A program made the position numbers and the translations under genes. Below, one piece after another: positions 1 through 58,094 of a stretch of 64,000 nt of DNA (positions within the stretch are counted from its first letter, which is position 1; each line of letters starts with the position of its first letter). Below the pieces are notes generated by a model, which was given only the letters and a program-made list of their open reading frames with translations, searched no databases and had not been told where the DNA came from. The DNA is from Euglena gracilis. Its lineage: Eukaryota. The DNA lies in assembly GCA_039621445.1 (NCBI GenBank), contig CP154954.1, forward strand, positions 24,006,954 to 24,070,953. Reading direction: 5' to 3'.

Positions 1-137
1 AAGAGGAGGATCATCAACCCCAGCCAAATGCAACCCCAAAAAATCTCAGCACCAGCCCCCCAATATCAGCCCCCCCTGCAAGAGGGGGGGGGCCAGGCCC
101 ACCATTTCGCATTTTTAAAAATCCAACAAAACCCACC

Positions 138-2147
138 ATGTTTGATGGCACACAGTGGGCCAAACTGGGCACAGTGATCCTGCAGGAGGAACCCAGCCCC
201 TTTCAATGGCAAGACCCCCCCCAGGCAACTGATTTACCAGCCTCCCCACCCAACACCCCCCTGGAAGGGGTCCCAGTTTGGGAAACACCAGAGTTTCGGA
301 CCCTCAGGAAAGAATTTTTTTGGAGAAGGCGCATGAGACAGCAAGCAGGAGGCATTTTATTTCACGAGAAGGTCGCCAGAAAACTGGCAAACATTCAGGA
401 AAAGTGGGTCGACATTGGCAGAACAGTGGACATTCGGCAGTCACAAAAAATGGTGCACACTGACATGAAACTCACGTTGCCACTGGCAGCGCCAAAAGTT
501 GTGCAATCGCCCCCCCCACCAAAAAAGAACCTCACCCTGGAACGGATCAGAATCGCCCAAATTCTTCATCAATACCGACCAGAGGAACAACGTGAGGAGG
601 GACTGGACATGTCGCACATAAAAAACGTACGCCGAGCTATCGCACAAAAAATCAAACAAAAAGTGCCAGCAGCAGAAGCAGTCCGCCCCCCGAGGACAAA
701 GAAGAGGCTGACACCCTCCCGAGAACCAACCCTGCCCATTGCCTGGCGATACTGCCCAAGAATTTGGCTGATGGATGACATGCCCAGACCGTTACAGTTT
801 GCGTGTGAGGTTGGATTGGCTGATCGTCTTTCCCCGTCCGTGTGGACCACCAGCGATCTTGATGACTCAAATGACTCCCTGTCGGACTATTATTCTTGTG
901 CTGCCACAAAAAATTTCCACATGGCAGAAACAGTTGGCACCATACACCTCTGCACTGCATGCCCACACGGGGGGAAGAAGCCGGAAGACGCATATCTGAA
1001 GACGGGGCGAGGTGATTCCCTGACAACAATGGGTGATGTGGAAACCAATCCAGGCCCGCTGACGGCATTTAATGGACCCTGTGGTGAAGTCATGGATCTA
1101 TTGGACCAACTTGTTGCCATGAACATGACTGATTTCTTTCGGATCAAGGCTAAAATACCACTGCGGCAAGGCCCCGATGGCTCCTCCCGTTCACTTCTTC
1201 CCAAAGCTACATACTGGCTGAAATGCACTTTGTGTGACATTGAAACCATCACTGCCTCGGCAGGTTGGTGCCTGCACCACAGGGAAACCTGCCCTGTTTT
1301 TTCAGCCACAGTATATCCATCTACTGAGACAGCAAAAGTACACTCCGTAACAAGCCGAGGATACCCCCAAGAACAAGGTCGGGAAAGGTTTTCAGAAGGA
1401 CACCAGCCGAATGGAAGGGGGGAACGAATCACCACCCATGGTGACGTCCAAACACAACCAGGGCCCATCTACTTCCGTCTGGCCACCATGGAAAGACCGA
1501 CAATCCCTATCTCCAGGGGACTTCAAGAAAATTTCATTCGGCACAGACTGCTGGCGAGCCTTCAAGAGGTGGATGCAGAACTTCAAACTTTCCGAGACAC
1601 CTTCCCTTCCGATGTCCTTGTTGAGGACGCTACCGTCTATGAGCTCACCGAATGTTGGGAAGTTTTGAGAGGAGTTCTGTTTGTGCTCATAGGGCTATGG
1701 CCACATCGACCACCACGTCACGACTCCCCATCGAGTGTGCATGCCATTATGTGGTTGCTGACCTGTTTATGGTCCGAAGTATGCAACATCGGCGAGGCCT
1801 TTCACTTCTACCTGCCCCCTATTCACCTAATGGCACTACCCAACGTTCTCCGGCCGAGAGGCACTTTCCCCAGAGTACCTCCAACGGAGCCCTCCTCGTC
1901 CGACCTCTGCCCATTGAATGTACACACCGTTGATATCCTGGACATCATGGCCTTGTTACGTCCGACAAGATCAGTAGTTTCAGTTGACCGTCACATCCGG
2001 AGGGCACGACGGACAGCACAAAGACGACCAAACCACCAACGAGGTGACATAGGCCGTAACAACGCTGTCATAGCCGAGAGGCCCACACACCAAGATGTCA
2101 CACTTTGTGGTGACGTTCACCTCGAGCCAGGACCTATTTACGGATAA
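138..2147 (+). pseudogene. CRE-like non-LTR retrotransposon polyprotein, N-terminal part with three 2A-like motifs and a putative zinc finger (duplicate copy)
   Basis: GDVETNPGP (1032-1058), GDVQTQPGP (1440-1466), GDVHLEPGP (2109-2135); CTLC-x12-HHRETC. Confidence 0.8.
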
Positions 2148-2230
2148 CCCCTGGTGAAGGACCCCTATCCCTGCGACCTAGCACCCGGCCCCATTGCCGA
2201 CGACCAACCAACCAACCAGGGCCTTCTAAG

Positions 2231-3691
2231 TTGTCAGATGTGGCCCCAGGGCACGCCAACCACGTACGGCAACCGATTGACCACGAAAAAACGCGGTATG
2301 GGTACAGTCCTCCCCGATGTGGCAGGGGCAAAAGCCTTGCCAGTTGTGGCGACATTGAAAGCAACCCAGGTCCCACAGAAACCCGCCCTCCCCAGCAGGA
2401 GGACGTCGAAATGGCCTCAGCCGCACAGACCTTTGCTGTGCCGCCGACGGAGGTACCACTCCTTGGATCTTGGTTTCCAATGCACTCAACGCCGCTGTTC
2501 TCGCCTACTTTGTCCCAGGCTATAATGCCGTTTCCCAGTTTGAACGGGGGCCCCGGGGCACCTGCAGCAGAACAAATCATGGTCATTGACGAACTAGAGT
2601 CCCGGGTGCGCTCAGTGATTTCCGAAATTCACGGGTGTGCGCCACAGGGCCAGGGGTTGATTGAGAATTTTGTGCCGTCCTCACCACAAGGGCAAGAGCA
2701 AGAATGCCAAAATGGTCGAAGGCCGCAGCCCCCCGTGGTTCCAGCACTAGCCCAATCCTCGATGAACGCTGATACGCTGCAAGTCACTCCCTTCTCGCAA
2801 CCTTGCCCAGCAATGCAGCCATCTTGGGAAGAAATTTCCCAAGACACTCGGGGCACGTTGGTCCATATCCCACGGGGAGCGTTGCGAAACGTTGTGCTCG
2901 CCTTCTGCAGCACCCTCAGTCGCTTTGTGTCAAAGCCAGGATGGGAGACCCTACACGCACTTTGGTGCTTCCCAAAAGCTGTGCTTGCTCCATTGAAGCG
3001 GAGCGGGAAAAGCCATTGGGCTGCAGTTGGACGGAAAATTACTGAGAGAGCCAATGCCTACCTCAACCGGTCCACAGAAGATTCGTGGGATGAGACTCGC
3101 CAAATTCGCGATGCACAAAACCCAAAGAAGAGAACACGAAGTCAGACAAAAAATTTCGATGCTGAAAGCCAAGAAAGATTGTGCAACCGTGTTCAAAGCC
3201 TTGTCAGCCATGGGGCGGTCAGTAAAGCCTGCCGCATGCTGACTTCTGATGGAATCCAAGATGCAGACGACCCGCTAATCTTGGAACGGTTGGCTGCCTT
3301 GCACCCTCCTGAACCCCAACCTGGAAGGCAAAATCTGCCTCCGGACTTCCCTAGCCTCGAATTCGATCTCAGTGAAGATGCAACCAGGGAGCGCCTAATT
3401 CAAATACGGAAAGCAGTCATGTCTTTCCCGAAGGAGTCCTCACCAGGACCGTCTGGACTTCGTCCAGATCATCTTAAAGACATGCTCTCTGATCCCCTGG
3501 GGACACAATCAGAACAACTCCTCACAATTTTGGACCAATTCGTCCGAACATGTTTGACAAACGGAAACCACAACTCTGCGGCATGGATTTTCGCTGGTGC
3601 CCGTTTGACTCCTCTTCAAAAACCCTGCAATCCAAGCGAAAACCTTGATGAGCTTGGCAATACCAACCCCATTCATGACCCAAAGAAGGAT
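2231..3691 (+). pseudogene. CRE-like polyprotein: fourth 2A motif and N-terminal part of reverse transcriptase, cut by an LTR (duplicate copy)
   Basis: GDIESNPGP (2348-2374), HIPRGA, GAVSKACRML, SSPGPSGLRPDHL, GARLTPLQK. The rest of ORF 2231..3919 runs into LTR sequence. Confidence 0.85.
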
Positions 3692-4330
3692 AGTTTCCCG
3701 AATGGTGTTGTTTTTGCCCAGCCTTCACTCCCGGGGGTCCGTGAGGGGGTACCGGCGGGGTGGGGGGTAGGCGCGATGGGCTCTGGGGAGAGGGGTAGGT
3801 TCGGGATACGCCCCTTCCCACGTAGGATTTTTTCCCGGGGACCGAAGGCCCTCCTTTTTGGGGAGTGGTTGGAGGGGGGAGTCCGGCTTGGCGTCCCTTC
3901 CGGCAGTGGGGGGGTTTAGGAAAAGGCCTGGTTAGCCTCCCCTAGGCTTCAGATACCCCAGCACCAACACCTTTTTGGCTTGTACTGCTCTCCTGCGCCA
4001 GCAGATAGCCAATCTTTTTTGTAATCTTTTGCTTGCTCCGCCCTTGGGATTTTGATTTTCTTGAACTTTTGCACTTTCTTGGCTCCAGTGCCTTTCCTTG
4101 AATTCCCTTGAAATTCCTTGAAAATTGATATAATTTGACCTTGGTCTTGATTCAGCAGGCACAATCTTGAATTGAAACCATAGATAAGAAAGAGGGAGCC
4201 TGCAGTAAAAAACAGAACAGTTAGAGAGCGGTTTGCGCTATTTTGATGCTAAATTAGCGCAGTGGTTCGCTATATACAACAGCAGGCTGTAATAGTGGCA
4301 ATAGAAGGTGCAGCGGCCGGTCCGCCAACT
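3692..4330 (-). repeat. 3' LTR of Gypsy element A (duplicate copy, 639 bp)
   Basis: Near-identical to 14418-15056 and 26351-26989; same GGAT flank and adjacent polypurine tract. Confidence 0.92.
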
Positions 4331-4639
4331 CTCCCCTTCCTCGGCCTTGCCTCCGGCTGCCGGGCCTGGCCGCTGCCTCTCTCGCCCCCCTGCCACAGGA
4401 GCCTGGCCGGGGCTCCCCGGTCCTTCGTTGCGCCGCTGCCTGGCGTGCCGGCTGCGGGCGGGCTCCTGTGGTCCGGGTTGGGGTGGACGCCAGCCAATCC
4501 CTGGCCGTGCTCCGCAGGCGTTCGGTGAGCGTCGCTGCTGACGTCGTCCGGCCTTGCGGGCTGGCCTCAGGAATTGGCTGGGCTCGGGCTTTGGCTCTCC
4601 TTGGCGCTCCTTGGTGGGTGGTCTTGTCTGGGTTCGGTG

Positions 4640-5310
4640 GCCCCCCCCCCTTTGGGGCTGACGGTCCCCCTGGCCGCCGTTTTTTTTTTTTTTTTTCCGC
4701 CCCCCCTGGCCGTGGGTGTCCCCCCCCCGGGTGGTCTTGGGCGGCCCCCCTGGGCCGCTTTTCGGCGCCTCCCCCCCTGGGGTCTGGGCGGCCCCCCTGG
4801 GCCGGTTTTCCTCCCCCCCCCCCCCCCTGGGGTCTTGGGCGGCCCCCCTGGGCCGTTTTTCTGCGCGCGCCCCCCCCCGGGGTCGTGGGCGGCCCCCCCT
4901 GGGCCGCTCTTGGGTTCCCCCCCCCCGGGTGTGGGCGCGGCCCCTTGGCCGCTTTTTTTTTTTTTTTGCCAGCCCCCCTGGGGCGTGCGTGGCCCCCCCC
5001 CCGGGTGGTCTTGGGCGGCCCCCCTGGGCCTGCTTTTCGGCGCCTCCCCCCCTGGGGTCTGGGCGGCCCCCCTGGGCCGCTTTTCGTCGCCCCCCCCCCC
5101 TCCCCTGGGGTCTTGGGCGGCCCCCCTTGGCCGTTTTTCCCCCCCACCCCCCCCCCCCCGGGGTCGTGCGCGGCCCCCCCCTGGGCCGCTCTTGGGTTCC
5201 TCCCCCCCGGGTGTGGGCGCGGCCCCTTGGCCGCTTTTTTTTTTTTTTTTTCCGGCCCCCCTGGGCCGTGCGTGCCCCCCCCGCCGGGGTGGTCTTGGGC
5301 GGCCCCCCTG
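4640..5310. repeat. GC-rich irregular tandem repeat in the 3' non-coding region of element A (duplicate copy)
   Basis: Recurring core TGGGCGGCCCCCCTGGGCCG separated by C, G and T homopolymers. Confidence 0.85.
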
Positions 5311-5749
5311 CCGCTCTTGGGTGCCCCCGGTCCGGGTCCTTTGGTCTTCCCTGGGTCCCCTCTGGGCCCCCCCGGGGTCGGTTGGGTTTCCCCCCTTGGG
5401 TCCCCTTTCTTTCTCCTTTCCTCTCCTTCTTTGCTCGCCTGTCCCCGGGGCTTTCGCCCCCGTGCTTCGTCGCTCTCCTCTCCTCTCCTCTCTCTCTCCT
5501 CTCTGGGGTCTCTCCGGTCTCCCTTCTCCTGGCTCGGCCTCGGCCGGGCTCACCGTGGCTCAGCCTTGGTTGGGGAAGAGAAGGGAGGGGTGGCACACCA
5601 GTAAGAGGTTGGGTTGGTGGGTGAGAGCCTCCACAGTATCCATCAGGTCAGTAGGGGGTGAGCCAGCTGCCGCCGACATCACCGCATCTCCTCACGACGA
5701 CAGCTCAGCTCCTGCGCGCGCGCTGCCAGCCGCCTGTCCTGAGCGTCGA

Positions 5750-8929: not shown

Positions 8930-9525
8930 GGGGTTGCGTCCAACAGGATGGGGCCAATTGGGGCCAGATTTTCTGGAAATGTCTGGGGGGCTGGGTCCAG
9001 CAGGCTGGGGTAAACTGGGGCCGGACGTTTCGGCCAGAAGTTTTTGAAATATGAGGGGGGGATGGGTCAAGAAGGCTGGGGCAAAATGGGGCCAGCGGTT
9101 TTGGAAATGTCTGGGCGGCTGGGTCCAGCAGGCTGGGGCTGTGGCCTGAAAAGGCCCACAAAGCACCATTATTAAGTGCAACTTTCTCTCTCTGTTGCTT
9201 TTTCTTTTGCTTTTGCTTTACAGTCAGTCTGGAAGTCTTGTTGCAATTTTGATTGCAAGTCCCCAAAACTGGTCCCCATTCATTCCAATCTGATGGGGGT
9301 GCCTCAAACTGCTGGACCCAGCCCCCCAGGCATTTCCAAAATGTGTGGCCCCATTTTGCCCCAACCTGCCGGACCCGGCCCCCCAGACATTTCCAAAACT
9401 TCTGGCCCATTTTGACCCAGCCTGCTGGACCCAGCAGCCCAGACATTTCCAAAATTGCTGGCCCCATTTTGTCCCGGCCTGATGGACCCATCCCCCCCCT
9501 CATATTTCAAAAACTTCTGGCCCCA
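8930..9525. repeat. Foldback/MITE-like inverted array of a ~57-bp unit
   Basis: 3-4 units of TTTTGGAAATGTCTGGG..GCTGGGTCCAGCAGG at 8930-9140, mirrored by 4 reverse-complement units at 9310-9525 around a ~170-bp spacer. Confidence 0.75.
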
Positions 9526-9690
9526 TTGGCACGTGCTGCTGAAAAGTTGATAAACCAAGGAATACGTGTGCCGTGGAGATTGCTCAGTGCAACTTTGAGT
9601 CTTGGGTCGCAACTGCCAGTGAAAAAAACGAAAGAAATCAGCCAGACCAGGCCTACGTCAGAATCAATTAGGAATTTCGGGGGTTTATTT

Positions 9691-9716
9691 ACTTTCTGAG
9701 TGTCTATTTTTTTTCG
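9691..9716 (+). other. Euglena-type spliced-leader exon, retro-copied (not an SL RNA gene)
   Basis: ACTTTCTGAGTGTCTATTTTTTTTCG matches the 26-nt Euglena SL. It is followed by TCTGCATAATCACC-ATG rather than a GT donor. Confidence 0.92.
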
Positions 9717-9730
9717 TCTGCATAATCACC

Positions 9731-12700
9731 ATGGCTGTAAAGGGGCCGGATGGCCCTCCAGAAGACCCCAAGACTCAAGACAATACACCCCTTGTCAACC
9801 AAGCTGCTACCACAACCAACCCTTCAAGTACACCTACTGTTGCAGTGGACACCGGACAGTTGGAGCTGCTGGCCAAGATGTTGTTGCCGCTGTTGGTGCC
9901 GGTGCTAACCACTGCTGTGGCACAACGACTCACTGCTGACCGCCCTGTACATAGTGACAGAGAAAGTCAAGACAGCAGCTCACAAAGAAGGAAGAGGACA
10001 TGGCAAGAGAGGGAAGAGCATGAAGAGTACCTACAGAGAAGGTTTGGAAGAGATTACAAGCCCCCATGGCAGAGAGGTCGACCCAGTTATCATATATCTC
10101 AACAGAGTTCTCCACAGCCCCAGCTCCATCAGCAAGTGAGTCTGGGGCCCCCCTGTACAGCAAGCCCATCAGTGGGCATTCCACAGTCAGGCCCATCAGT
10201 GAGCATTCCAATGAACAGCCCATTCCAATGCCCACCAGTGGGTAGAAGTCAAGTATGTCCATCTGTCACATCAATCATACAAATGTACATTCCATCACAG
10301 ACCAACCTTTGGGGTGAACCCCTGCAATCTCAGCAACCACTGCAATCAAACTGGAGCAGAGAAGATGACCAGAGGAAGAATTGGACCAGAGAAGAAGAGC
10401 AGAGAAGGAGAGAGGCTGAACTCTTCAGAAGCCTCAGAGCCTTTCTCAGCACAGGCCAGAGTACACAAGTCCCCCCCCTCCCAACACCATTACACAACCC
10501 TGGCCTGCCACCATCACCCTTAATCCCAGATGTGGTACTGGCATCACCATCAGCCTTCCAATGTGGTTTTCTGCCTGCAGCTTTCCCTTTTGTCTCACAA
10601 AGTCCCCCCCAAAGAGGGGACAACTCAACACAATACCTTCACCCAGTAAAACAAGTGGATCAAGAATTTCATCCCAAGGCAACTCCAAATCAAAAGCAGT
10701 CAGCAAAACAACGCCCCCCCACCCAAAAGAGGAGGATCATCAACCCCAGCCAAATGCAACCCCAAAAAATCTCAGCACCAGCCCCCCAATATCAGCCCCC
10801 CCTGCAAGAGGGGGGGGGCCAGGCCCACCATTTCGCATTTTTAAAAATCCAACAAAACCCACCATGTTTGATGGCACACAGTGGGCCAAACTGGGCACAG
10901 TGATCCTGCAGGAGGAACCCAGCCCCTTTCAATGGCAAGACCCCCCCCAGGCAACTGATTTACCAGCCTCCCCACCCAACACCCCCCTGGAAGGGGTCCC
11001 AGTTTGGGAAACACCAGAGTTTCGGACCCTCAGGAAAGAATTTTTTTGGAGAAGGCGCATGAGACAGCAAGCAGGAGGCATTTTATTTCACGAGAAGGTC
11101 GCCAGAAAACTGGCAAACATTCAGGAAAAGTGGGTCGACATTGGCAGAACAGTGGACATTCGGCAGTCACAAAAAATGGTGCACACTGACATGAAACTCA
11201 CGTTGCCACTGGCAGCGCCAAAAGTTGTGCAATCGCCCCCCCCACCAAAAAAGAACCTCACCCTGGAACGGATCAGAATCGCCCAAATTCTTCATCAATA
11301 CCGACCAGAGGAACAACGTGAGGAGGGACTGGACATGTCGCACATAAAAAACGTACGCCGAGCTATCGCACAAAAAATCAAACAAAAAGTGCCAGCAGCA
11401 GAAGCAGTCCGCCCCCCGAGGACAAAGAAGAGGCTGACACCCTCCCGAGAACCAACCCTGCCCATTGCCTGGCGATACTGCCCAAGAATTTGGCTGATGG
11501 ATGACATGCCCAGACCGTTACAGTTTGCGTGTGAGGTTGGATTGGCTGATCGTCTTTCCCCGTCCGTGTGGACCACCAGCGATCTTGATGACTCAAATGA
11601 CTCCCTGTCGGACTATTATTCTTGTGCTGCCACAAAAAATTTCCACATGGCAGAAACAGTTGGCACCATACACCTCCGCACTGCATGCCCACACGGGGGG
11701 AAGAAGCCGGAAGACGCATATCTGAAGACGGGGCGAGGTGATTCCCTGACAACAATGGGTGATGTGGAAACCAATCCAGGCCCGCTGACGGCATTTAATG
11801 GACCCTGTGGTGAAGTCATGGATCTATTGGACCAACTTGTTGCCATGAACATGACTGATTTCTTTCGGATCAAGGCTAAAATACCACTGCGGCAAGGCCC
11901 CGATGGCTCCTCCCGTTCACTTCTTCCCAGAGCTACATACTGGCTGAAATGCACTTTGTGTGACATTGAAACCATCACTGCCTCGGCAGGTTGGTGCCTG
12001 CACCACAGGGAAACCTGCCCTGTTTTTTCAGCCACAGTATATCCATCTACTGAGACAGCAAAAGTACACTCCGTAACAAGCCGAGGATACCCCCAAGAAC
12101 AAGCTCGGGAAAGGTTTTCAGAAGGACACCAGCCGAATGGAAGGGGGGAACGAATCACCACCCATGGTGACGTCCAAACACAACCAGGGCCCATCTACTT
12201 CCGTCTGGCCACCATGGAAAGACCGACAATCCCTATCCCCAGGGGATTTCAAGAAAATTTCATTCGGCACAGACTGCTGGCGAGCCTTCAAGAGGTGGAT
12301 GCAGAACTTCAAACTTTCCGAGACACCTTCCCTTCCGATGTCCTTGTTGAGGACGCTACCGTCTATGAGCTCACCGAATGTTGGGAAGTTTTGAGAGGAG
12401 TTCTGTTTGTGCTCATAGGGCTATGGCCACATCGACCACCACGTCACGACTCCCCATCGAGTGTGCATGCCATTATGTGGTTGCTGACCTGTTTATGGTC
12501 CGAAGTATGCAACATCGGCGAGGCCTTTCACTTCTACCTGCCCCCTATTCACCTAATGGCACTACCCAACGTTCTCCGGCCGAGAGGCACTTTCCCCAGA
12601 GTACCTCCAACGGAGCCCTCCTCGTCCGACCTCTGCCCATTGAATGTACACACCGTTGATATCCTGGACATCATGGCCTTGTTACGTCCGACAAGATCAG

Positions 12701-14417
12701 TAGTTTCAGTTGACCGTCACATCCGGAGGGCACGACGGACAGCACAAAGACGACCAAACCACCAACGAGGTGACATAGGCCGTAACAACGCTGTCATAGC
12801 CGAGAGGCCCACACACCAAGATGTCACACTTTGTGGTGACGTTCACCTCGAGCCAGGACCTATTTACGGATAACCCCTCGTGAAGGACCCCTATCCCTGC
12901 GACCTAGCACCCGGCCCCATTGCCGACGACCAACCAACCAACCAGGGCCTTCTAAGTTGTCAGATGTGGCCCCAGGGCACGCCAACCACGTACGGCAACC
13001 GATTGACCACGAAAAAACGCGGTATGGGTACAGTCCTCCCCGATGTGGCAGGGGCAAAAGCCTTGCCAGTTGTGGCGACATTGAAAGCAACCCAGGTCCC
13101 ACAGAAACCCGCCCTCCCCAGCAGGAGGACGTCGAAATGGCCTCAGCCGCACAGACCTTTGCTGTGCCGCCGACGGAGGTACCACTCCTTGGATCTTGGT
13201 TTCCAATGCACTCAACGCCGCTGTTCTCGCCTACTTTGTCCCAGGCTATAATGCCGTTTCCCAGTTTGAACGGGGGCCCCGGGGCACCTGCAGCAGAACA
13301 AATCATGGTCATTGACGAACTAGAGTCCCGGGTGCGCTCAGCGATTTCCGAAATTCACGGGTGTGCGCCACAGGGCCAGGGGTTGATTGAGAATTTTGTG
13401 CCGTCCTCACCACAAGGGCAAGAGCAAGAATGCCAAAATGGTCGAAGGCCGCAGCCCCCCGTGGTTCCAGCACTAGCGCAGTCCTCGATGAACGCTGATA
13501 CGCTGCAAGTCACTCCCTTCTCGCAACCTTGCCCAGCAATGCAGCCATCTTGGGAAGAAATTTCCCAAGACACTCGGGGCACGTTGGTCCATATCCCACG
13601 GGGAGCGTTGCGAAACGTTGGGCTCGCCTTCTGCAGCACCCTCAGTCGCTTTGTGTCAAAGCCAGGATGGGAGACCCTACACGCACTTTGGTGCTTCCCA
13701 AAAGCTGTGCTTGCTCCATTGAAGCGGAGCGGGAAAAGCCATTGGGCTGCAGTTGGACGGAAAATTACTGAGAGAGCCAATGCCTACCTCAACCGGTCCA
13801 CAGAAGATTCGTGGGATGAGACTCGCCAAATTCGTGATGCACAAAACCCAAAGAAGAGAACACGAAGTCAGACAAAAAATTTCGATGCTGAAAGCCAAGA
13901 AAGATTGTGCAACCGTGTTCAAAGCCTTGTCAGCCATGGGGCGGTCAGTAAAGCCTGCCGCATGCTGACTTCTGATGGAATCCAAGATGCAGACGACCCG
14001 CTAATCTTGGAACGGTTGGCTGCCTTGCACCCTCCTGAACCCCAACCTGGAAGGCAAAATCTGCCTCCGGACTTCCCTCGCCTCGAATTCGATCTCAGTG
14101 AAGATGCAACCAGGGAGCGCCTAATTCAAATACGGAAAGCAGTCATGTCTTTCCCGAAGGAGTCCTCACCAGGACCGTCTGGACTTCGTCCAGATCATCT
14201 TAAAGACATGCTCTCTGATCCCCTGGGGACACAATCAGAACAACTCCTCACAATTTTGGACCAATTCTTCCGAACATGTTTGACAAACGGAAACCACAAC
14301 TCTGCGGCATGGATTTTCGCTGGTGCCCGTTTGACTCCTCTTCAAAAACCCTGCAATCCAAGCGAAAACCTTGATGAGCTTGGCAATACCAACCCCATTC
14401 ATGACCCAAAGAAGGAT
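9731..14417 (+). pseudogene. 5' half of the CRE-like polyprotein (Q/P-rich region, four 2A-like motifs, zinc finger, RT N-terminus); two frame changes
   Basis: ORFs 9731..10903, 10561..12873 and 12957..14645 are in successive -1 frames. 2A-like motifs at 11758-11784, 12166-12192, 12835-12861 and 13074-13100. Confidence 0.82.
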
Positions 14418-15056
14418 AGTTTCCTGAATGGTGTTGTTTTTGCCCAGCCTTCACTCCCGGGGGTCCGTGAGGGGGTACCGGCGGGGTGGGGGGTAGGCGC
14501 GATGGGCTCTGGGGAGAGGGGTAGGTTCGGGATACTCCCCTTCCCACGTAGGATTTTTTCCCGGGGACCGAAGGCCCTCCTTTTTGGGGAGTGGTTGGAG
14601 GGGGGAGTCCGGCTTGGCGTCCCTTCTGGCAGTGGGGGGGTTTAGGAAAAGGCCTGGTTAGCCTCCCCTAGGCTTCAGATACCCCAGCACCAACACCTTT
14701 TTGGCTTGTACTGCTCTCCTGCGCCAGCAGATAGCCAATCTTTTTTGTAATCTTTTGCTTGCTCCGCCCTTGGGATTTTGATTTTCTTGAACTTTTGCAC
14801 TTTCTTGGCTCCAGTGCCTTTCCTTGAATTCCCTTGAAATTCCTTGAAAATTGATATAATTTGACCTTGGTCTTGATTCAGCAAGCACAATCTTGAATTG
14901 AAACCATAGATAAGAAAGAGGGAGCCTGCAGTAAAAAACAGAACAGTTAGAGAGCGGTTTGCGCTATTTTGATGCTAAATTAGCGCAGTGGTTCGCTATA
15001 TACAACAGCAGGCTGTAATAGTGGCAATAGAAGGTGCAGCGGCCGGTCCGCCAACT
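14418..15056 (-). repeat. 3' LTR of element A
   Basis: Direct repeat of 26351-26989; AGTT...AACT termini. Confidence 0.95.
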
Positions 15057-15068
15057 CTCCCCTTCCTC
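15057..15068 (-). promoter_or_regulatory. Polypurine tract of element A
   Basis: Minus strand GAGGAAGGGGAG directly before the 3' LTR. Confidence 0.85.
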
Positions 15069-15364
15069 GGCCTTGCCTCCGGCTGCCGGGCCTGGCCGCT
15101 GCCTCTCTCGCCCCCCTGCCACAGGAGCCTGGCCGGGGCTCCCCGGTCCTTCGTTGCGCCGCTGCCTGGCGTGCCGGCTGCGGGCGGGCTCCTGTGGTCC
15201 GGGTTGGGGTGGACGCCAGCCAATCCCTGGCCGTGCTCCGCAGGCGTTCGGTGAGCGTCGCTGCTGACGTCGTCCGGCCTTGCGGGCTGGCCTCAGGAAT
15301 TGGCTGGGCTCGGGCTTTGGCTCTCCTTGGCGCTCCTTGGTGGGTGGTCTTGTCTGGGTTCGGT

Positions 15365-16030
15365 GGCCCCCCCCCCCCTTGGGGCTGGCGGGGCCCCTCG
15401 CCGCCCTTTTTTTTTTTTTTTTTTTTGCCGGCCCCCCTGGGCCGTGCGTGCCCCCCCCCCGGGTGGTCTTGGGCGGCCCCCCTGGGCCGCTTTTCGGCGC
15501 CTCCCCCCCTGGGGTCTGGGCGGCCCCCCTGGGCCGGTTTTAGGCGCCCCCCCCCCCTGGGGTCTTGGGCGGCCCCCTTGGGCCGTTTTTTTGGCCCCTC
15601 CCCCCCCCCCGGGGTCGTGGGCGGCCCCCCCTGGGCCGCTCTTGGGTTCCCCCCCCCCCGGGGTGGGCGCGGCCCCTTGGCCGGTTTTTTTTTTTTTCCC
15701 CGCCCCCCTGGGCCGTGCATGCCCCCCCCCCCCCGGGAGGTCTTGGGCGGCCCCCTGGGCCGCTTTTCGGCGCCTCCCCCCCTGGGGTCTGGGCGGCCCC
15801 CCTGGGCCGCTTTTCGGCGCCCCCCCCCCCTGGGGTCTTGGGCGGCCCCCCCGGGCCGTTGTTCTGGCCCCCCCCCCCCCGGGGCCGTGGGCGGCCCCCC
15901 CTGGGCCGCTCTTGGGTTCCTCCCCCGGGTGTGGGCGCGGCCCCCTGGCCGCTTTTTTTTTTTTTTTGCCGGCCCCCCTGGGCCGTGCGTGCCCCCCCCG
16001 CCGGGGTGGTCTTGGGCGGCCCCCCTGCCG
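15365..16030. repeat. GC-rich irregular tandem repeat in the 3' non-coding region of element A
   Basis: Recurring TGGGCGGCCCCCCTGGGCCG core with homopolymer spacers. Confidence 0.85.
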
Positions 16031-17087
16031 CTCTTGGGTGCCCCCGGTCCGGGTCCTTTGGTCTTCCCTGGGTCCCCTCTGGGCCCCCCCGGGGTCGGTT
16101 GGGTTTCCCCCCTTGGGTCCCCTTTCTTTCTCCTTTCCTCTCCTTCTTTGCTCGCCTCTCCCCGGGGCTTTCGCCCCCGTGCTTCGTCGCTCTCCTCTCC
16201 TCTCCTCTCTCTCTCCTCTCTGGGGTCTCTCCGGTCTCCCTTCTCCTGGCTCGGCCTCGGCCGGGCTCACCGTGGCTCAGCCTTGGTTGGGGAAGAGAAG
16301 GGAGGGGTGGCACACCAGTAAGAGGTTGGGTTGGTGGGTGAGAGCCTCCACAGTATCCATCAGGTCAGTAGGGGGTGAGCCAGCTGCCGCCGACATCACC
16401 GCATCTCCTCACGACGACAGCTCAGCTCCTGCGCGCGCGCTGCCAGCCGCCTGTCCTGAGCGTCGAAGGAGAGGGGAAGGAACAGAAAGATGAACTGGAA
16501 CACGACCACCATGGAGAAAATCCCAGGTTGACGCCAGGCCTTTTCCATTTCCCCATGGGGTGTGGGCAGGGGGCGGGGGTGGCCTCCTTGTTGGGAAGGA
16601 AGGGCCGGGTCGCACCGTGGCCATGCAGGGGCACGCCTCCGGTGGTGGTGCCCCCTCGCCGCAGGGACGGGTCATGGGGGTGCACGGGAACGGGGCCCCC
16701 TGGTGGGAGGGGGGATCCCGAGCTGGGGCGTCCCTGCGGGTCGACACGCGGGGGCGGCGACCTCTACCCGTGGGGGCAGGGGAGACTCGGGGACCGGGTC
16801 TCTGAGGTACGCCTGGACTGCGGGGTGGGTACGCGTGTGATATGGGGAGTGATGGGGTGGTGGACGGTGGAGCTGGGGCAAGGGAAGCGCGGGAGAGCGC
16901 ATCCCTTGCAGACGCGGATCGCACGGAGACGGGGCGCTTGCCGCTCGCGGGCCGCCGGTGGACCCTGACCGGGTACCTGGGGTGGGCCGCTTGTTGGGCA
17001 CCCGCCGGGCCAACATCTCCTCCGTCTTCTTGGTCTCGATCTCCTTCGTCTCCTCCATCACCTTCATCATCGTCTCCAGCAGAATCA

Positions 17088-18560
17088 TCACCTTCTCGAC
17101 ATACATCTCCGTCCTCGGGGTCCTGCCACATCCACTCCTCTGGTGGCTCCTCCCAGGACAGCCCAAACTCCTTCTCCTTCTCCTTCTCGATCTCCACAGC
17201 GTGGCAGATGGCGATGTGGGGTTCCTCCGGGAGACCTCGAAAGGTACTTCATGATGTCCTCCTTGATGTCGTGCTCGACGAAGTACGACACGATGGGGGA
17301 GGCGTACCGGTGGAAGAAGTGCCGCAGCGGCTCCCACGTCTTCTCCTCGTACCCCAGCCACTTGACGAGGAACTCGAGGTCGCCGTTGGCATCGCGCCGG
17401 TGGGTGACCACCGCCTCCACCTCCCACTCGTCCAGCCGGGAACCCTCCTCCGGCCTGGATTGGCGGAAGTGGAAGAGACGGAGCGGTGGCCCCATGAGGG
17501 CTGGATCGTGGCGGTAGCTCTTGATTTGGGATCGGTGGGCCACCTGCTTCCGGCCATCCTCCATCTGGAGCACGTACGTGTGCTCACTGGTGCGCTCTGC
17601 CACCACGCACGGCCCGATCCAGTACGTCTCCAGCGTCTCCCCTGTGCGGTGTGCGCGGCGGAGATACCAGACCTTGTCGTTGATCTCCAGCTCCGGCAGC
17701 TCTTTCCTCCGCTTGTTGACCGCCTCGGCTGTCTTGGCGTGCTCCTCGTTCAGGATCTTCGCAACACGATGATCGATGTCCTGCATGCGCTCGAAGAAGG
17801 CCACCGCGTCCTCGGCCCGCGTGGGCGGCTGGTACGGCACCCCGCCATACCACCGCTCGCGGCCGAAGAGCACCTGGAAGGGGCTCAGGCCGCTGGGCCC
17901 AGCACTGTCGTGCAGGGTCCGCAGGGCCCGCGGCAGCGCCTCCGGCCACTCCACGCCCTCCGCCGCCTTCATCTTCCTCAGCCGCTTCTGGATCTGCGCG
18001 CCGAGGACCTCCGCACGGGCGTTGCCCTCGTGGTGGTATGCTTGGGAGAAGGCATGGCGCACCCCCAGTCTTGCACACATTGCCCTCCACCAGGCCCCCA
18101 CGAAGTGGGGGCCCCGGTCCGACGTGATGACGCTTGGCACGCCGAACTGCGCCCACTGCTCATACATAGCCTTAGCCACCGCCTCCGCCGTTAGCCCGCG
18201 GGTGTGGTGCACGGTTGCGATCGCCCAGCCGGAGTGCCGATCGATGCATGCTGCGAACACGTTCACCAGCTTGCCGCCCTCCACCTCCACCTCCGGCATC
18301 TGGAACAGATCCACGCTCACCGAACACATCACATGGGGCGGCACTGGCGTGGGCGTGATGCGGAGCCGGAGGGGTTGGTGCGGGTGCTCCGATGCCTGAC
18401 AGAACTCACCACACGCCAGAATCTTGCCCGCCAGCTCGCGTGCTCGGGAGGGCACCGCAAACTGGAAGTTCCGGCTGGCCTCATCGAGAGGCGCTCACCG
18501 ACGTGCGACGCCCGGTGCTGCTCTCGGATTGCCGCTCGGTCAGGGCATCCGGCACGCACC
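17088..18560 (-). pseudogene. pol: Integrase with C-terminal chromodomain (element A)
   Basis: DDE motifs VSVDLF / ITSDRGPHF / NARAE; WIGPCVV; chromodomain EWEVEAVVTHR...FLVKWLGYEEKTWEP; frameshifted N-terminus. Confidence 0.92.
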
Positions 18561-19649
18561 AGACGGTCCTTCACCAGCTTGCCTGCCTCCTTCCGGTAGC
18601 CGGTGGGCCATGCCGCCGCCCGCTTGATCAGTGCCGCGGACCTCCCCACGGCTCAACGTGGGCACTTCTCATGCCTCACTCCAGTCCATCGCCATCAGGT
18701 CCTGGTCCTCCGCGGGGCTGCCGGGGTGGTGCAGCTGCGATCGGCACACCTCCAAGGCCACGGCGGCTGGGAGGCGCACCCACGGGGGGGAGCGGATGGG
18801 AGGGGAAAATGAGGGGGGGGGTCCACCACTGGCTGGAGAACGCCGCTCACCGAACAACGACGGACGGGGGGGGGGACACCAAACGGGGGGGCGGGAGGGG
18901 CAGGAAGGGGGGGGCATGGGGGGAGGCTCCCCTCCGAGGCCGGACGGGGGCATCCGGCGCAGGTGGGGCCCCCCGCGTTGCCTGCCACACGCCGGGGGGG
19001 CCTTGGGGGGGCGCTCCAGCCATCACCCTTCGCTTGCTGCCTGGCCGGGGGGGGGCGGGGGGGGGGCTGGGGTGCCCCCCCACCTTGGGTGGGCCGGCCG
19101 ACGGCACCGCTCTTCGGCTGGTTGGGACGACTACCGGGCGGCTTGGCGGCCGCCTGGCTTCGGGTTGTCACGGCGATCGGCGGACGGTGGGGATGCTGCG
19201 TGCGCTGGCCGCGGGCGGGGACGATGCTTGCTCGGCGGACGGGGATCGCACGGCGGGTGCTGCTGCCGGTGCCGCTGCTGGCCGTACGGAAAACCGCACG
19301 GTGCGTGGTGTGGCGGGCTGCTGCTGCTGCTTGGGCTGCGCGGACAACGCCGGGTGCTGCGGCTGCTCGGGCTGCCCGGGCGATGCCAGCGCTGTCGCAC
19401 TGGGCACTCGCACGGTCGGTGCTGCAGTCGCAGCCGGCGCGGTGGGGTGCGGTGGGGGGCGGCGGTCGGATTGCCGGACTTCCGGCTGCCGGAATCCCGG
19501 CGGGCGCCACCTCGGATGCCGGTGTCCCGGCCGATGCCGCCGTGGCTGCCGGTGTCCCGGCTGGCGACGATGGGGATGCCGCATTTGCGGTCGGGAGGGG
19601 GCACACCTTGTCCACCGGGTGTACTGCCTTCGGGCAGCTGCGCTCCGCG

Positions 19650-21200
19650 GCCTTCTCCTCTCGGATCTGCTGCTCCATCTCCTCGGCGTCCGCTGCCGTC
19701 CCGTGCCAGCAGGAGTCTCGGTACTCCTGGCTGGCCGGGTACGCCCACCGCGACAGCGCGTCCCCCACCTCGTTCTTCTCCCCCGGCACGTACACCACCT
19801 CCACCATGTGCTCGTTCAGCTTGGAGTGCCACCTCGCCCGCCGGCCTTGCGGTCCCGCTCCTCGGGCGACGTGCTCCTTGTACCAGCTTTCCAGGGACCG
19901 GTGGTCCGTCAGCACCAGCACCTTCTGCCCGGTGATGTAGCCGCCCCACTTGTCCAGCGCGCTCACCACCGCGTACGTCTCCTTGTCGCGGGTGTCCCAC
20001 CGCAGCCGCTGCCCCTCCGTCAGCTTCCTGCTCATGAAGCCCACCGCCACCGACGCCCCGGGCTTCAGGAGCTCCTCCACCGAGGGGATGCCCTCCACCT
20101 TCGGCAGCTGCTCCAGCACGGCGCCCACCGCGTAATCGGAGGCGTCTGTGCGGAGCACGAACGGCTTGTTCATGTCCACGTGCCACAGCTCCAGGTCCGC
20201 CACCAGCGCTGCCTTCAGCTTCTCGAACGCCTCCAGCTCGGCCGCGGACCACACGATGGGGTGCTTGCTGCCCGCCCGGGACAAATCCCGCGGTAGCTTC
20301 AGCTTCTCCTGCAGGGGGGCGGCCAGCTCCGAGTACATACGTACATACCCCGAATAATAATTGCAGAGGCCGAGAAAGGCGCGCAAACTCGTCACATTGG
20401 CCGGGGGTTGCCACCGCTGCACCGCCGCCAGCTTGCCGCTCGCGGGCACGCGCTTGCCCTCCCCCAGCACGTGCCCCACGAACTCCGCCCTCTTGCGGAA
20501 CAGCTGCGCCTTCTTCTTATCCGCCACCCACCGATCCGCCTCCAGCGCCCGCAGGGTCTCACGCAGATCCCCCGCGTGCCGCCTGATCAGCTCCTCGTCG
20601 CTCCACCCCGGCAGCCGCCTCGTGCTCACCAGGATGTCGTCGAAGTAGGGGTGGGTGTGGGCGGAGACGTTGCGGCAGGTCGCGTCGATGTCCCTCTGGA
20701 GCAGCGCCGGACCGACGTTGATGCCCTGGGGCACCACGGTCCACTGCCAGAGGCCGCCGGGCAGGTGGATGTTGGTGATGGGTCAGCTTTCCTCCGCCAT
20801 GGCCACCTGGTGGAAGGCGTCCCGCAGGTCCACCGTCGAGAAGATCTCGCACTTCGCCTGCTCGCTCACGATGTCCTCCGTCAGCGGTAGGGGGTAGGAG
20901 TCCATCTGCAGCATCTTGTTGGTCAAGCTGTAGTCGCACACCAGCCTCCACTTGCCCGACTTCTTGCGGATGGGGAAGGCGGCCGCCCTCCACGGCCCCC
21001 GCCCCGCCTCCAGCTTGCCGTCCGCCAGGCACTCCCGCTCCATCTCCCTCAGGGCCTCCAGCCGCTCGCCCTTGAGGTTGATGATCCGGCCCACCACCGG
21101 GGTTGCTCCCGGCTTCAGCCTCAGCACCGCCTTCCCATGGGTGCCCCGCGCCGGGGGACACGGCCACACCCGCTCTCGGAACACCCGGCCTTCGAACTCG
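19650..21200 (-). pseudogene. pol: Reverse transcriptase and RNase H (element A)
   Basis: KWRLVCDY, DLRDAFHQV, VPQG, YFDD, LRTDASDYAVGAVL, TDHRSL, DALSR; one in-frame TGA at 20783-20785. Confidence 0.95.
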
Positions 21201-21479
21201 TTGATGATCTCGTCCCGCAGCTGCCGCGCCAAGGGATGGTCGACGTCGTCTTCTGTCTCCACTACCCCTCGCACCGCCTTCGCCGCTTCTTCGGCCTCCT
21301 TCAGCATCATCGCCACCTCTCGGACTGCAGCCTCGTCCGTGGTCAGCTGCCGCATCTTCTTCACCGTGGAGAGGTAGCCGTCCAGCTCGTCTTCGTCTTC
21401 ATCGCCATCTTCCTCCTTCTTCTCTTCGTCTCCACGCCGCCTCAGGATCCACTTGGGGTCCGCGTGGAGCTGCAAGGTG

Positions 21480-21830
21480 TCGCGCCATGGCTGGACATCC
21501 AGCCGGTTCTCCCGGAGCCACGGATACCCCAGAATCAAATCCGTGCTGATGCAGCCGTCGTACGCCACCACCTTCGTCGTCCACGTCCTCGGTCTCCGCT
21601 CCTCGTCGTCGGTCTGGGCCGCGAAGGACAGCTTCAGCTCTGCTTCTCGTTGTCCTCCGGGTAGTGCTTCTCCGCTCACCGTGCGCAGCACCAAGGGTCT
21701 TGTTGCCGCGTGGAACACCGACTCCGGGAACAGCTCCTTCTTCACGAGGGAGGTCTGCGCCCCCGTATCGATCAAGGCTTTCGCCTGGATCTTCATCCCG
21801 CCTGCCTCCACCTCCACGTCCATCAGCAGC
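21480..21830 (-). CDS. Aspartic protease domain (element A Pol)
   Basis: ALIDTGAQTS ... DLILGYPWL. Confidence 0.9.
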
Positions 21831-21964
21831 TGGTAGCACCCCCCACGGTGCTCCATCCGGCCGACCGTGAACGGCCGGTTCGGGAGGTGCTGCCACGGCC
21901 GCACCACCACCTTCCGCACCTTCTTCGCCTCCTCCGCCGCCGCCACTTCTTCCCGTGCCTTCTC

Positions 21965-22576
21965 CCCCAGGCACAGGTACCGCACCACCCCCTCCGGGAT
22001 GCGGTAGGCCTCCTCCCTTGTGCACCTGCGCTCGCCGCCACTGCCTCCCAGCTGCAGCCGATGTCGTCGTACGCCGTCTGGTCCTTCCACCATGCTGCCG
22101 CACTTCCCACCACAGATGACGTCGTCCAGCTCCTTCGCCATCGCATCGCTGACCCAGAAACGGGTCGGCTTGCGATACCCGTATTCCGCGAAGCGGCAGT
22201 AGTCGATATCCACGTACCGCACTCCGCGCAGGACTCGTCGCCACCGCAGCAAGCCGAACCTCGGGTTTTCAATCCACCACCGCGTAGGCGCCAAGTACTC
22301 CACCAGCTCCCTCGTGGCCTTCACCACCGCGTCCGCCATGCGGAGCCTCCTCTTGCGGGTGGTGAGGGCTGCGGAGTACTCGGTACAGGGCGGGGACGCC
22401 GCGATGACCTCGAAGTAGCCGGGAGCGTACTGTTCCCAGTACCTCCACTTCCTCACGTCGGCCACGATGTCCGGCTTCCACTTCTCGTCCCAGTCCACGC
22501 TGATCACCTTGAAGCCCATCTTCTCCAGCGCTCTTCTGACACTGCCCGTTCCGGAGAACAGGTCCAGCGCCCATCT
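21965..22576 (-). CDS. C5-cytosine DNA methyltransferase domain at the N-terminus of element A Pol
   Basis: Motif I LDLFSGTG, II VISVD, III ADV, IV SPPC (catalytic Cys at 22385-22387), VI ENP, VIII-like GYRKPTRFW, C-terminal YRIP; uninterrupted and in frame with protease and RT. Confidence 0.92.
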
Positions 22577-23086
22577 TTCCTTCTCTTCCTTTGCCGCCTT
22601 CTTCACCGGCTCTTTCTTCTCCTTCTTCGCCGGTGCTTTCTTCACCTCCTTCGCCGGTGCTTGTCTTTCTTGTGGTGGTGTCTTGTGGAGACTTGGTGAT
22701 GCCTTCGGTGATGACGTTGTCGGTGTTGTTGATGGCGATGACGTCGATGCTGTCTTCGTTGCCGATGCCGTCGGCGTTGATGTGGTCGATGATGTCTTCG
22801 TTGCCGACGCCGTCGGCGTTGATGAGGGCGATGATGTCACCTTCGCCTTCGGCACGCTCGGTGATGTTGATGGGGACGATGGTGTCGGCTTCGCCTTCGA
22901 CACCTGCCGTAGGCAGGGTCTCTCCCCTTCCTTTGGAGACTTCCTGCCTCTTCTCTTTCTTTGGACCAGCCGCCATCCTTCTTCTTCATACTCCACCGCT
23001 CTTACCAGCCTCGTCCCTGGTGCGGATGTCAGCTGGGGGGTTGACTGCCGGTCCAGGCCCTTCCCCTCGGGACCTGGACGGCCCCG

Positions 23087-25779: not shown

Positions 25780-26340
25780 ACCCTTTGATCCCCCTTGCGG
25801 CTCCCTCTGGGGGTGGTGGTGGGGGAGAACAGCAGCGCCGCTCCCGCCGCGGCCAGCAGCGGGAAGCGGGCCCGCAGCGGCGTGGCGTCCCGCGGGGACT
25901 CCAGCTCCGGCAGCTGGAGCGGCACCAGCGCGAACGCCGCCGCGGTCGCCGCCGCGGACGCCGCCGCGGACCCCCCCGGGGACGGCGTGGCTGCTGGGGT
26001 GGTGCGCAGGGAGTGGGACAGGTACGAGGGTGGGGATGGGGTGGACAGGATGGGAAATGTGAGCTGGAGTGGGAATGGGAGCTGGGGGTTTGGGCTTATC
26101 GCCTTTTCTTGAGCGGGGCTAGGTGGGGAAATGGGGGATTCTTTTTCTGCTGTGCACGCTGAGGGGGACTGAGCAGCGGCATGCGTGTGCGGGGGATTGG
26201 GATTGGGTATGGGGCGGTCTTTTTCATTTGGGGGAGTCCCATGGTGGGGGACACCCACCACCGGGGCGGGGTGAGCCTGGGGAGCCGGATCCATCTTGTC
26301 GGTGTGGTTTGTTCCCAGGAAATTTTGTTCTGTGAAAAAC

Positions 26341-26351
26341 CTCTGCTACCA
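26341..26351 (-). promoter_or_regulatory. Primer binding site (initiator tRNA-Met) of element A, overlapping the LTR by 1 nt
   Basis: Minus strand TGGTAGCAGAG; its first T is the last base of the LTR. Confidence 0.88.
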
Positions 26352-26989
26352 GTTTCCCGAATGGTGTTGTTTTTGCCCAGCCTTCACTCCCGGGGGTCCG
26401 TGAGGGGGTACCGGCGGGGTGGGGGGTAGGCGCGATGGGCTCTGGGGAGAGGGGTAGGTTCGGGATACTCCCCTTCCCACGTAGGATTTTTTCCCGGGGA
26501 CCGAAGGCCCTCCTTTTTGGGGAGTGGTTGGAGGGGGGAGTCCGGCTTGGCGTCCCTTCCGGCAGTGGGGGGGTTTAGGAAAAGGCCTGGTTAGCCTCCC
26601 CTAGGCTTCAGATACCCCAGCACCAACACCTTTTTGGCTTGTACTGCTCTCCTGCGCCAGCAGATAGCCAATCTTTTTTGTAATCTTTTGCTTGCTCCGC
26701 CCTTGGGATTTTGATTTTCTTGAACTTTTGCACTTTCTTGGCTCCAGTGCCTTTCCTTGAATTCCCTTGAAATTCCTTGAAAATTGATATAATTTGACCT
26801 TGGTCTTGATTCAGCAGGCACAATCTTGAATTGAAACCATAGGTAAGAAAGAGGGAGCCTGCAGTAAAAAACAGAACAGTTAGAGAGCGGTTTGCGCTAT
26901 TTTGATGCTGAATTAGCGCAGTGGTTCGCTATATACAACAGCAGGCTGTAATAGTGGCAATAGAAGGTGCAGCGGCCGGTCCGCCAACT
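26351..26989 (-). repeat. 5' LTR of element A
   Basis: Direct repeat of 14418-15056. Confidence 0.95.
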
Positions 26990-26993
26990 GGAT

Positions 26994-35114: not shown

Positions 35115-35319
35115 TTGGTTCGATCCTACGCTGACTGGCAGCGGAGGGCCCCTGCACCGTTTATTACACGGTCGCAGCGTCAGCTCCCGGCTTCTAGTCA
35201 ACGTCTAAGCAGACGAGCAGGCTCCGGAAGGCTCTGTACGGTATTACCTGTTACAACCCTTCTGGTGCCAGCACAACTGCTTAGTTTTGTGGGTTTTTGC
35301 TGTTTTTGTCATCAGAAAG

Positions 35320-39325: not shown

Positions 39326-39445
39326 TGAACAGATGGAGGTAGGACCTGATCAACCCTGCCCCCCCTGCCCATCTGCCTTTGTGGTCGGTACGCGGAAAAT
39401 TTTCGGGTCCCCCTCCCCCCTCTCCAACTTTCCGCTCGTAATGTT

Positions 39446-58078: not shown

Positions 58079-58094
58079 ATTTCCTGCGAAGATT

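Follow-up and report, generated by a model that had tools for sequence, protein, structure and literature searches.

A 64,000-nucleotide stretch of the Euglena gracilis genome (GenBank assembly GCA_039621445.1, contig CP154954.1, positions 24,006,954 to 24,070,953 of the forward strand; hereafter the window) contains a non-LTR retrotransposon (LTR, long terminal repeat) in which a reverse transcriptase (RT) is followed by a CCHC motif and then by a restriction-like endonuclease (RLE), the architectural type of R2 and CRE elements. Its coding region holds four peptides that resemble the 2A ribosome-skipping (StopGo) peptides. We consider it likely, chiefly from sequence comparisons, that this is a dead copy of a high-copy R2/CRE-type element whose polyprotein carries class A 2A peptides, that sites 1 and 4 would mediate skipping while sites 2 and 3 would be inactive, and that three products would result. 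At sites 1 and 4 the ribosome would release the nascent chain after NPG and resume from the proline, and a single mRNA would thus be translated into an N-terminal protein, an accessory block and an RT-endonuclease protein. Inactivity of sites 2 and 3 would leave the accessory block as one fusion of zinc-finger module, module C and basic peptide, giving three products and not five. The comparisons show the motifs, their surplus over the chance expectation, their conservation and position at module borders throughout the lineage, and the single frame of other copies; from these we infer the skipping activity itself, the identity of the active sites and any effect on product ratios. The copy in the window is dead because an inserted Gypsy element splits it, its frame is broken and the frames of its endonuclease are broken as well.

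Four 2A-like sites in one element

All four peptides lie on the plus strand, where a reading of the DNA alone that preceded this analysis (the sequence-only reading) had placed them. Site 1 (GRGDSLTTMGDVETNPGP, 11731-11784) has the canonical core GDVETNPGP, with the break predicted between the glycine codon ending at 11781 and the proline codon starting at 11782. Site 2 (GRGERITTHGDVQTQPGP, 12139-12192) is a variant, GDVQTQPGP, in which both E and N are changed to Q. Site 3 (HQDVTLCGDVHLEPGP, 12814-12861) reads GDVHLEPGP in the window, GDVQLEPGP being the majority form in other copies of the family. Site 4 (GRGKSLASCGDIESNPGP, 13047-13100) has the canonical core GDIESNPGP and is the nearest of the four to the RT protein. 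Sites 1-3 are contained in a frame open from 10420 to 12873 and site 4 in a second frame open from 12840 to 14645.

The strict pattern D[VI]E.NPGP was matched four times in the six-frame translation, corresponding to two unique places once the duplicated region at 1-5749 is excluded, against an analytic expectation of 2.2e-4 and no match in 300 dinucleotide shuffles. The looser pattern GD[VI]...PGP gave eight matches, four of them unique (shuffle mean 0.033, maximum 1; analytic expectation 0.024). A chance origin of the motifs is ruled out by this excess.

Sites 1 and 4 fit the class A definition GD(V/I)ExNPG/P, where the slash marks the break. Sites 2 and 3 fail it, the E and N positions both being altered, and judged by their letters they are 2A-derived peptides, not canonical members. 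In the upstream tract, of which a class A peptide needs about 10-15 suitable residues, the pattern GRGxxL(L/T)(S/T)x occurs at 22 of the 30 profiled sites; sites 1, 2 and 4 have it and site 3 lacks it. It may resemble the peptide of Thosea asigna virus; a text search for that peptide gave 0 occurrences. Site 1 shares 74% identity over 19 amino acids with sites of the related proteins P0007 and P0012, to which the remainder of the N-terminal segment has no similarity, and site 4 shares 82% identity over 17 amino acids with a site of P0011. The form of site 2 is retained in P0010, a copy with 93% identity. Site 2 stands at the position where the modules of 11 aligned relatives end in GD(V/I)ExNPG, so that this alignment identifies it as a derived form of a canonical site. 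Sites 2 and 3 are probably inactive relics, descended from canonical sites by loss of the glutamate and the asparagine.

Conservation of the sites among relatives

Three protein searches returned 39 proteins. P0010, P0016 and P0017 were excluded as redundant and 32 RT-bearing relatives were kept, the motif RP(I/V)AxG serving as the reference point in the RT. A Polarella protein, an entry of eukprot and a mis-binned protein of a metagenome-assembled genome are distant relatives. Eight of the 32 reach at least 550 amino acids upstream of the RT motif, and seven of these eight carry two to four sites, P0025 having none. No site was found in the 24 shorter RT-bearing relatives, many of which start past the expected position of the last site. 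Three fragments lacking an RT carry three sites each. The open reading frames (ORFs) of the relatives continue through all their sites, the last of which lies 306-755 amino acids before the RT motif.

Across 29 sites in 10 relatives (two to four each), NPGP is present in 29 of 29, and the glutamate is absent in three (two in P0007, one in P0014). The lineage sites share the pattern GRGxxL(L/T)xxGD(V/I)ExNPGP. When 18-residue segments anchored on PGP were compared for 31 sites, those of the window copy included, the mean pairwise identity was 0.58, as against 0.07-0.08 for segments shifted by 18-54 amino acids. The relatives share 28-51% identity in the RT protein, and in the N-terminal segment and module D of the window copy the 2A peptide is the sole stretch that resembles distant relatives. 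That the peptide stays constant while its surroundings drift is the main argument for function, and these alignments support the 2A array as a trait of the lineage. As an observation apart, the sites of P0005 and P0027 have W at position -16 and DGD(V/I)E cores, combining a class-B-like N-terminal part with a class-A-like core.

Modules bounded by the sites

In the relatives the predicted cuts always fall between domains and never inside one, the RVT_1 domain always lies past the last cut, and the tracts between sites measure 61-358 amino acids. Several tracts have recognisable content. An SLBP-type domain, which binds the histone hairpin RNA, scored above the Pfam cut-off in P0002 and P0005 and was also seen in P0001 (residues 153-189). 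The tract between cuts 509 and 621 of P0005 has the SLBP_RNA_bind match (residues 515-583, 72.7 bits) as its whole content, and in P0002 the domain (residues 40-101, 50.6 bits) precedes the first cut. Such a module may stand in functionally for ORF1p. A match to a Dam-like adenine methyltransferase lies between cuts 2 and 3 in P0001 (370-412, 22.9 bits) and P0002 (463-509, 26.4 bits) and was also found in P0006; the matches in P0001 and P0002 are below the Pfam cut-off of 28.1, and the NPPF motif is present. A 2026 preprint on DAM retrotransposons describes carriers of the DIRS and LTR types. Where a relative reaches far enough, its CCHC module has a site on either side.

The same organisation, with class A 2A-like peptides at the module borders, is seen in the window copy, in line with the earlier proposal that the motifs divide a retrotransposon polyprotein into modules. 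Upstream of the first break, the N-terminal product of the 2A-bearing frame would comprise 306 amino acids if started at the ACCATG at 10864 (10864-11781, plus strand); P0010 is its 93% identical copy.

Module B (136 amino acids, 11782-12189, plus strand), defined from alignments, BLASTP and AlphaFold2, consists of a CCHC zinc-finger-like part and a disordered linker. Residues C57, C60, H75 and C79 are shared without exception by the 7 aligned sequences, and BLASTP against P0015, P0011 and P0001 gave E values from 3e-12 to 5e-7. The AlphaFold2 model places the four ligand residues on a hairpin and a helix, with a predicted local distance difference test (pLDDT) score of 76-92 in the core and a disordered linker and 2A tail. 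A Foldseek search gave no PDB match at E<=0.001 (best E 0.66). The module represents a recurrent cassette of about 100-145 amino acids, GP(S/C)G ... W.C..C ... H...C followed by a 2A peptide, which occurs once or twice per element. The zinc-finger module announced by the sequence-only reading is therefore supported by invariant ligands and by the predicted fold.

Module C (223 amino acids, 12190-12858, plus strand) is family-specific: its sole BLASTP match is P0010, and the Atlas returned no usable match. It had been described as hydrophobic and helical. Support for that description is weak: the single-sequence AlphaFold2 model, which contains helices only, is poor (pLDDT 44.7), and since the highest Kyte-Doolittle mean over 19 residues is 1.4, we do not call the module a membrane segment. 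Module D (about 79 amino acids, 12862-13097, plus strand), read in the second frame past a deletion, is the short basic peptide that had been predicted. It is rich in proline and contains 16 K+R versus 6 D+E in 86 residues, and its likeness to relatives is confined to the last 17-22 amino acids, which are the 2A peptide.

Beyond site 4, the N-terminal part of the RT-endonuclease protein (13098-14417, plus strand) shares 41-51% identity over about 300 amino acids with P0001-P0006. It is interrupted by a Gypsy/chromodomain LTR retrotransposon on the minus strand (14418-26989), an insertion of about 12.6 kb whose two LTRs (14418-15056 and 26351-26989) share 99.2% identity, with GGAT on both flanks; its Pfam matches are rve, Chromo, RT_RNaseH and RVT_1. 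Removal of one GGAT copy lets the host frame resume at 26994 across the computed junction. The remainder of the RT protein follows at 26990-28487 (plus strand), with an RVT_1 match (E 3.4e-12) on 26964-28487. An RT is thus present, as had been stated, but its RVT_1 match lies beyond the 12.6-kb insertion.

Other copies and the frame break

The region 11500-13400 was compared with public sequencing runs of one organism, in which about half of the sampled words were present. Four runs gave 755 (X1), 395 (X8), 48 and 6 contigs, and the summed word depths reached at least 1e4 in two DNA runs, from which it follows that the family is very abundant and highly amplified. The runs X15-X19, guessed to be RNA, contributed small shares (X15 gave the 6 contigs, with 88-99% identity), which are not evidence of expression. 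A metagenome scan for close copies gave 46 pattern matches and 0 confirmed ones.

In the window copy and its duplicate the frame is broken at 12865-12867 (plus strand) by a private 1-nt deletion together with a C-to-T change. The sole bridging contigs of X8 (depth 1764.4/1764.4) and X11 (14.2/14.2) have C for T at 12865 and an extra C behind 12866, and three contigs of X1 and one of X8, at their loose ends, agree with the extra base and read on in frame. With this base the frame of sites 1-3 enters that of site 4, reading PGP-IHRITPRE. Other copies therefore carry all four sites in a single frame, and the break in the window is a deletion of one nucleotide, not of four. The sequence-only reading had rightly taken the frame change after site 3 for a mutation and not a designed shift; the 4-nt slippage deletion that it postulated, and the restored reading IYLRI, do not agree with the family.

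At site 3, the change 12846 C>G, which replaces H by Q, accounts for depths of 8488.7/9310.9 in X1, 14.2/14.2 in X11 and 1764.4/3271 in X8, so that the family forms of the variants are GDVQTQPGP and GDVQLEPGP. Among the variants listed, the only core change in sites 1, 2 and 4 is the silent 12189 G>A. Decayed motifs also occur: site 1 of P0010 reads NPGL, and loose ends in X8 give an NRGQ reading at site 4.

Ends, duplicate and clade of the element

An exact 26-nt E. gracilis spliced leader lies at 9691-9716 (plus strand), and the first ATG comes 14 nt after its end. The 24-mer at 9693-9716 was found with 0 mismatches and by 0 of 100 shuffles, and the two preceding bases complete the 26-mer (26/26). 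The leader sequence is printed in PMC6242988 and serves as a primer in PMC5654406. The dinoflagellate spliced leader gave 0 matches in the window. A dinoflagellate host, which a sub-threshold DNA_methylase match in the nested LTR element had suggested, is rejected on these grounds, and the exact leader match identifies the host as Euglena. The window contains no Rfam match to a 5S or leader-RNA gene, and the leader stands without the leader-RNA intron. The leader followed by 14 nt and an ATG, with neither a 5S nor a leader-RNA gene, gives the locus the look of a retro-copied trans-spliced mRNA, and this single copy suggests the 5' end of such an mRNA, from which the copy or its head would derive, rather than an interrupted leader gene. 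Directly upstream of the leader lies a 57-bp tandem repeat (3.8 copies, 9309-9527). At the Rfam gathering threshold the window gave a single match, a tRNA at 61491-61562 (plus strand, 35.1 bits).

The ATG behind the leader opens ORF-a (390 amino acids, 9731-10903, plus strand) at ACCATGG. ORF-a has no homologue at near lengths, and none of the three upstream ORFs, ORF-a included, has a Pfam match. The 2A-bearing frame, open from 10420, shares 40 nt with ORF-a and, relative to ORF-a, is the -1 frame. ORF-a may be the first ORF of the element, the head of a single long ORF that has been shifted in frame, or a host mRNA retroposed together with the element. No -1 slippery heptamer was seen by eye in the overlap of ORF-a and ORF-b or after site 3, and programmed frameshifting is therefore not proposed.

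At the other end, a CCHC motif and remnants of the endonuclease lie in three frames at 28408-28800 (plus strand). The relatives have intact CPRC..H..CC, RPGD, D.TV and K motifs, and in eight aligned relatives the columns C813, H823, C827, R865, P866, D868, D883 and K913 are invariant; the window copy retains CPRC..H..CC and pieces of the PD..D..K nuclease. An A-rich run at 29037-29052 (plus strand) is a putative boundary and possibly the 3' end of the element.

A segmental duplicate of the same broken copy occupies 1-3691 (plus strand), with sites at 1005-1058, 1413-1466, 2088-2135 and 2321-2374. Window positions 1-5749 and 10727-16466 are 98.5% identical, with five base differences over 11716-13105 and the frame break common to both. 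Because the second array is a segmental duplicate, it is not independent evidence. It contains the LTR junction, and hence the duplication is later than the LTR insertion.

R2-type elements are characterised by a CCHC motif and a PD..D..K nuclease on the C-terminal side of the RT, and insertion into spliced-leader RNA genes is a feature of the CRE clade. A profile of eight relatives searched against the PDB matched R2 best (9nl3, E 3.7e-18; 9dou, 5.9e-18), with LINE-1 ORF2p at 6.8e-6 and no solved CRE structure among the matches. A phmmer search of P0003 against the PDB gave 0 matches, and in the Atlas P0003 matched only unnamed RVT_1 clusters. No Exo_endo_phos match, which would indicate an apurinic/apyrimidinic endonuclease (APE), was found in the ORFs of the window or in six relatives. 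The architecture, the euglenozoan host and the 5' spliced leader are compatible with a possible membership of the CRE clade.

Which sites would skip

[quoted passage not shown] For sites 2 and 3, a substitution scan (preprint 10.64898/2026.09.24.754024) lists no active substitution at D12, E14 or N16 in P2A or F2A except E14H in P2A, and Odon 2013 (PMC3708506) found E-substituted retrotransposon 2A peptides inactive and cites a change of N to H as lowering activity. Together with the asparagine in all of the relatives' sites, this intolerance makes sites 2 and 3 probably inactive, and the earlier suggestion that the two doubly changed variants are weak or new 2A types is not borne out. Because the family was massively amplified with these two sites, a strict need for separation there is excluded; separation at sites 2 and 3 is dispensable, and partial activity is compatible with the data.

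Several points weigh against the reading with two active sites. The accessible account of the FMDV 2A work in Euglena does not make actual separation of the fusion evident. According to one 2026 preprint on eukaryotic 2A-like peptides, most of those associated with retrotransposons cut protein abundance without clean skipping, and in another 2026 preprint highly active peptides were present in only 43 of 580 RT-element contigs. A canonical motif is reported to be insufficient without a suitable upstream tract. Conservation within one transposon family is descent from a master copy and not selection, and minor alleles at key codons may exist outside the variants listed. Finally, sites 2 and 3 survived the massive amplification and may have partial activity.

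An alternative, which is that of the sequence-only reading, is that all four sites skip, the variants weakly, giving five products in decreasing amounts, with QxQPGP and QxEPGP as new attenuated 2A types. The variants do retain G-D-V and P-G-P and persisted in a family of very high copy number; site 2 keeps GRG..(I/L)T upstream and sits exactly at the canonical site of the relatives; and H for N is tolerated by class B peptides, as is E14H in P2A. However, each variant is altered at two positions at once, where the scan tolerated nothing apart from that E14H, E-substituted retrotransposon peptides were inactive when tested, N is present in 29 of 29 sites of the relatives, and the GRG pattern is gone from site 3. 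We therefore judge skipping at all four sites improbable. Somewhat less improbable, though still unlikely, is that the motifs are mainly translational attenuators, stalling or termination at which would keep the RT-endonuclease scarce relative to the upstream proteins, with release of modules secondary. In a 2026 preprint 59% of the tested ORF2p and 70% of the tested ORF1p 2A-like peptides reduced protein abundance, Luke 2024 (PMC11512398) reports some 2A-like peptides without a detectable downstream product, and serial sites before the RT would compound the loss. Attenuation alone, however, requires neither placement at borders nor two to four copies, whereas the positions of the sites coincide exactly with the borders of conserved, folded modules, as expected if modules need freeing.

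We give hardly any credence to a reading in which the motifs, sitting in a decayed repeat, arose by chance or are remnants without function. The window copy is dead (LTR insertion, frame break, broken endonuclease) and some copies have lost motifs (NPGL in P0010, NRGQ in loose ends of X8), but the chance expectation for the strict pattern is 2e-4, and the motif is 58% conserved, versus 7-8% in the flanks, across lineages with 28-51% identity in the RT protein. Beyond the reading with active sites 1 and 4, one may speculate that, in RLE retrotransposons of euglenids and other protists, the two-ORF design of long interspersed elements (LINEs) has given way to a picornavirus-style polyprotein in which cassettes of a module and a 2A peptide (SLBP-type, CCHC, Dam-like) are duplicated, swapped and lost, that QxQPGP and QxEPGP would be natural 2A peptides that lack the 'invariant' Asn, skip infrequently and thereby set graded ratios, and that the element would spread as a trans-spliced mRNA. 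As a whole we regard this picture as a long shot.

Other features of the window

The nested Gypsy element (14418-26989, minus strand) shows a faint DNA_methylase match ahead of its protease, which at 17.4 bits is below the threshold (cut-off 22). In this it is reminiscent of the 'EpiLTR' elements reported in E. gracilis; the dinoflagellate elements with DNMT are described as DIRS elements and APE-LINEs, unlike the Gypsy element here. A second LTR-type element (35209-43800, plus strand) encodes a gag-like coiled coil, a CCHC knuckle and RNase H and has a Dam-like match before the RT (21.4 bits, under the cut-off). A diverged, inverted partial copy of it lies at 58087-60555 (89.9% identity). The tandem array at 55643-58089 matches itself at offsets that are multiples of about 91 bp, with 85-92% identity. 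Two long proline-rich ORFs at 44513-47764 (plus strand) and 51429-53330 (minus strand) have no Pfam matches, and their ends are related in inverted orientation (47754-48992 versus 55636-54409, 82%).

Comparison with known systems

2A-like peptides of APE-type non-LTR retrotransposons were reportedly described by Heras in 2006. Elements of this type (L1Tc and Ingi; CR1, L2, Rex1, Crack and STR in animals; Odon 2013, PMC3708506) share with the Euglena family the class A motif, in frame and upstream of the enzymatic protein; they too occur in Euglenozoa, and they too have decayed or substituted motif variants among their copies. They differ in that their endonuclease is an APE and their one site stands in the N-terminal part of ORF2p, whereas the Euglena lineage has a restriction-like endonuclease C-terminal to the RT and two to four sites bounding accessory modules. 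R2/CRE-type elements, in turn, share a single long ORF with RT, CCHC motif and PD..D..K nuclease, and R2 elements are the best solved relatives; in Odon 2013 (PMC3708506) RLE elements are treated as an ancient single-ORF group and 2A peptides appear only in APE-type clades. The Euglena family differs from the R2/CRE type in being extremely abundant, and the window copy lies outside a recognisable spliced-leader RNA gene.

Recent surveys (PMC12338488; bioRxiv 10.64898/2026.06.17.732966; bioRxiv 10.64898/2026.09.24.754024) of 2025-2026 report hundreds of 2A-like peptides in RT elements; in addition they describe eukaryotic genes having as many as three sites and, on ORF2p-like proteins, N-terminal accessory domains, deubiquitinases for example. 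The accessible text of the literature, including PMC12338488, PMC3708506, PMC11512398, PMC12846837 and three preprints, has no passage on 2A peptides or arrays in Euglena, on 2A in RLE elements, on arrays of four sites, or on cassettes (SLBP, CCHC or Dam) flanked by sites; some of the peptides may be listed in the surveys' supplementary tables. What appears to be new here, judging from the predicted proteins, is the multi-site 2A array in RLE elements, a single 2A peptide in APE-type ORF2p and arrays in picornaviruses being known. The candidate T2A-like peptides of this euglenozoan could be of use as co-expression tools for Euglena and trypanosomatids, and, as a natural experiment, the family bears on the NPGP rule: two of its sites have lost Glu and Asn, yet it was massively amplified.

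A parallel in organisation is found in picornaviruses of the Paavivirinae (Luke 2024, PMC11512398), which have 2A arrays, accessory tracts of 50-150 amino acids and a number of sites that varies between close relatives; the 61-358 amino acids of the tracts in the Euglena lineage are of similar size. The Paavivirinae arrays belong to RNA virus polyproteins and their inter-2A tracts are without database match, whereas the carrier in Euglena is a retrotransposon and several of its tracts are recognisable domains, so that the likeness would be one of the way of working and not of membership. If our reading is true, StopGo recoding would organise a whole cellular mobile element as it does picornavirus genomes, and the two to four sites of the lineage would free recognisable accessory proteins, among them an SLBP-like RNA binder possibly acting in the role of ORF1p.

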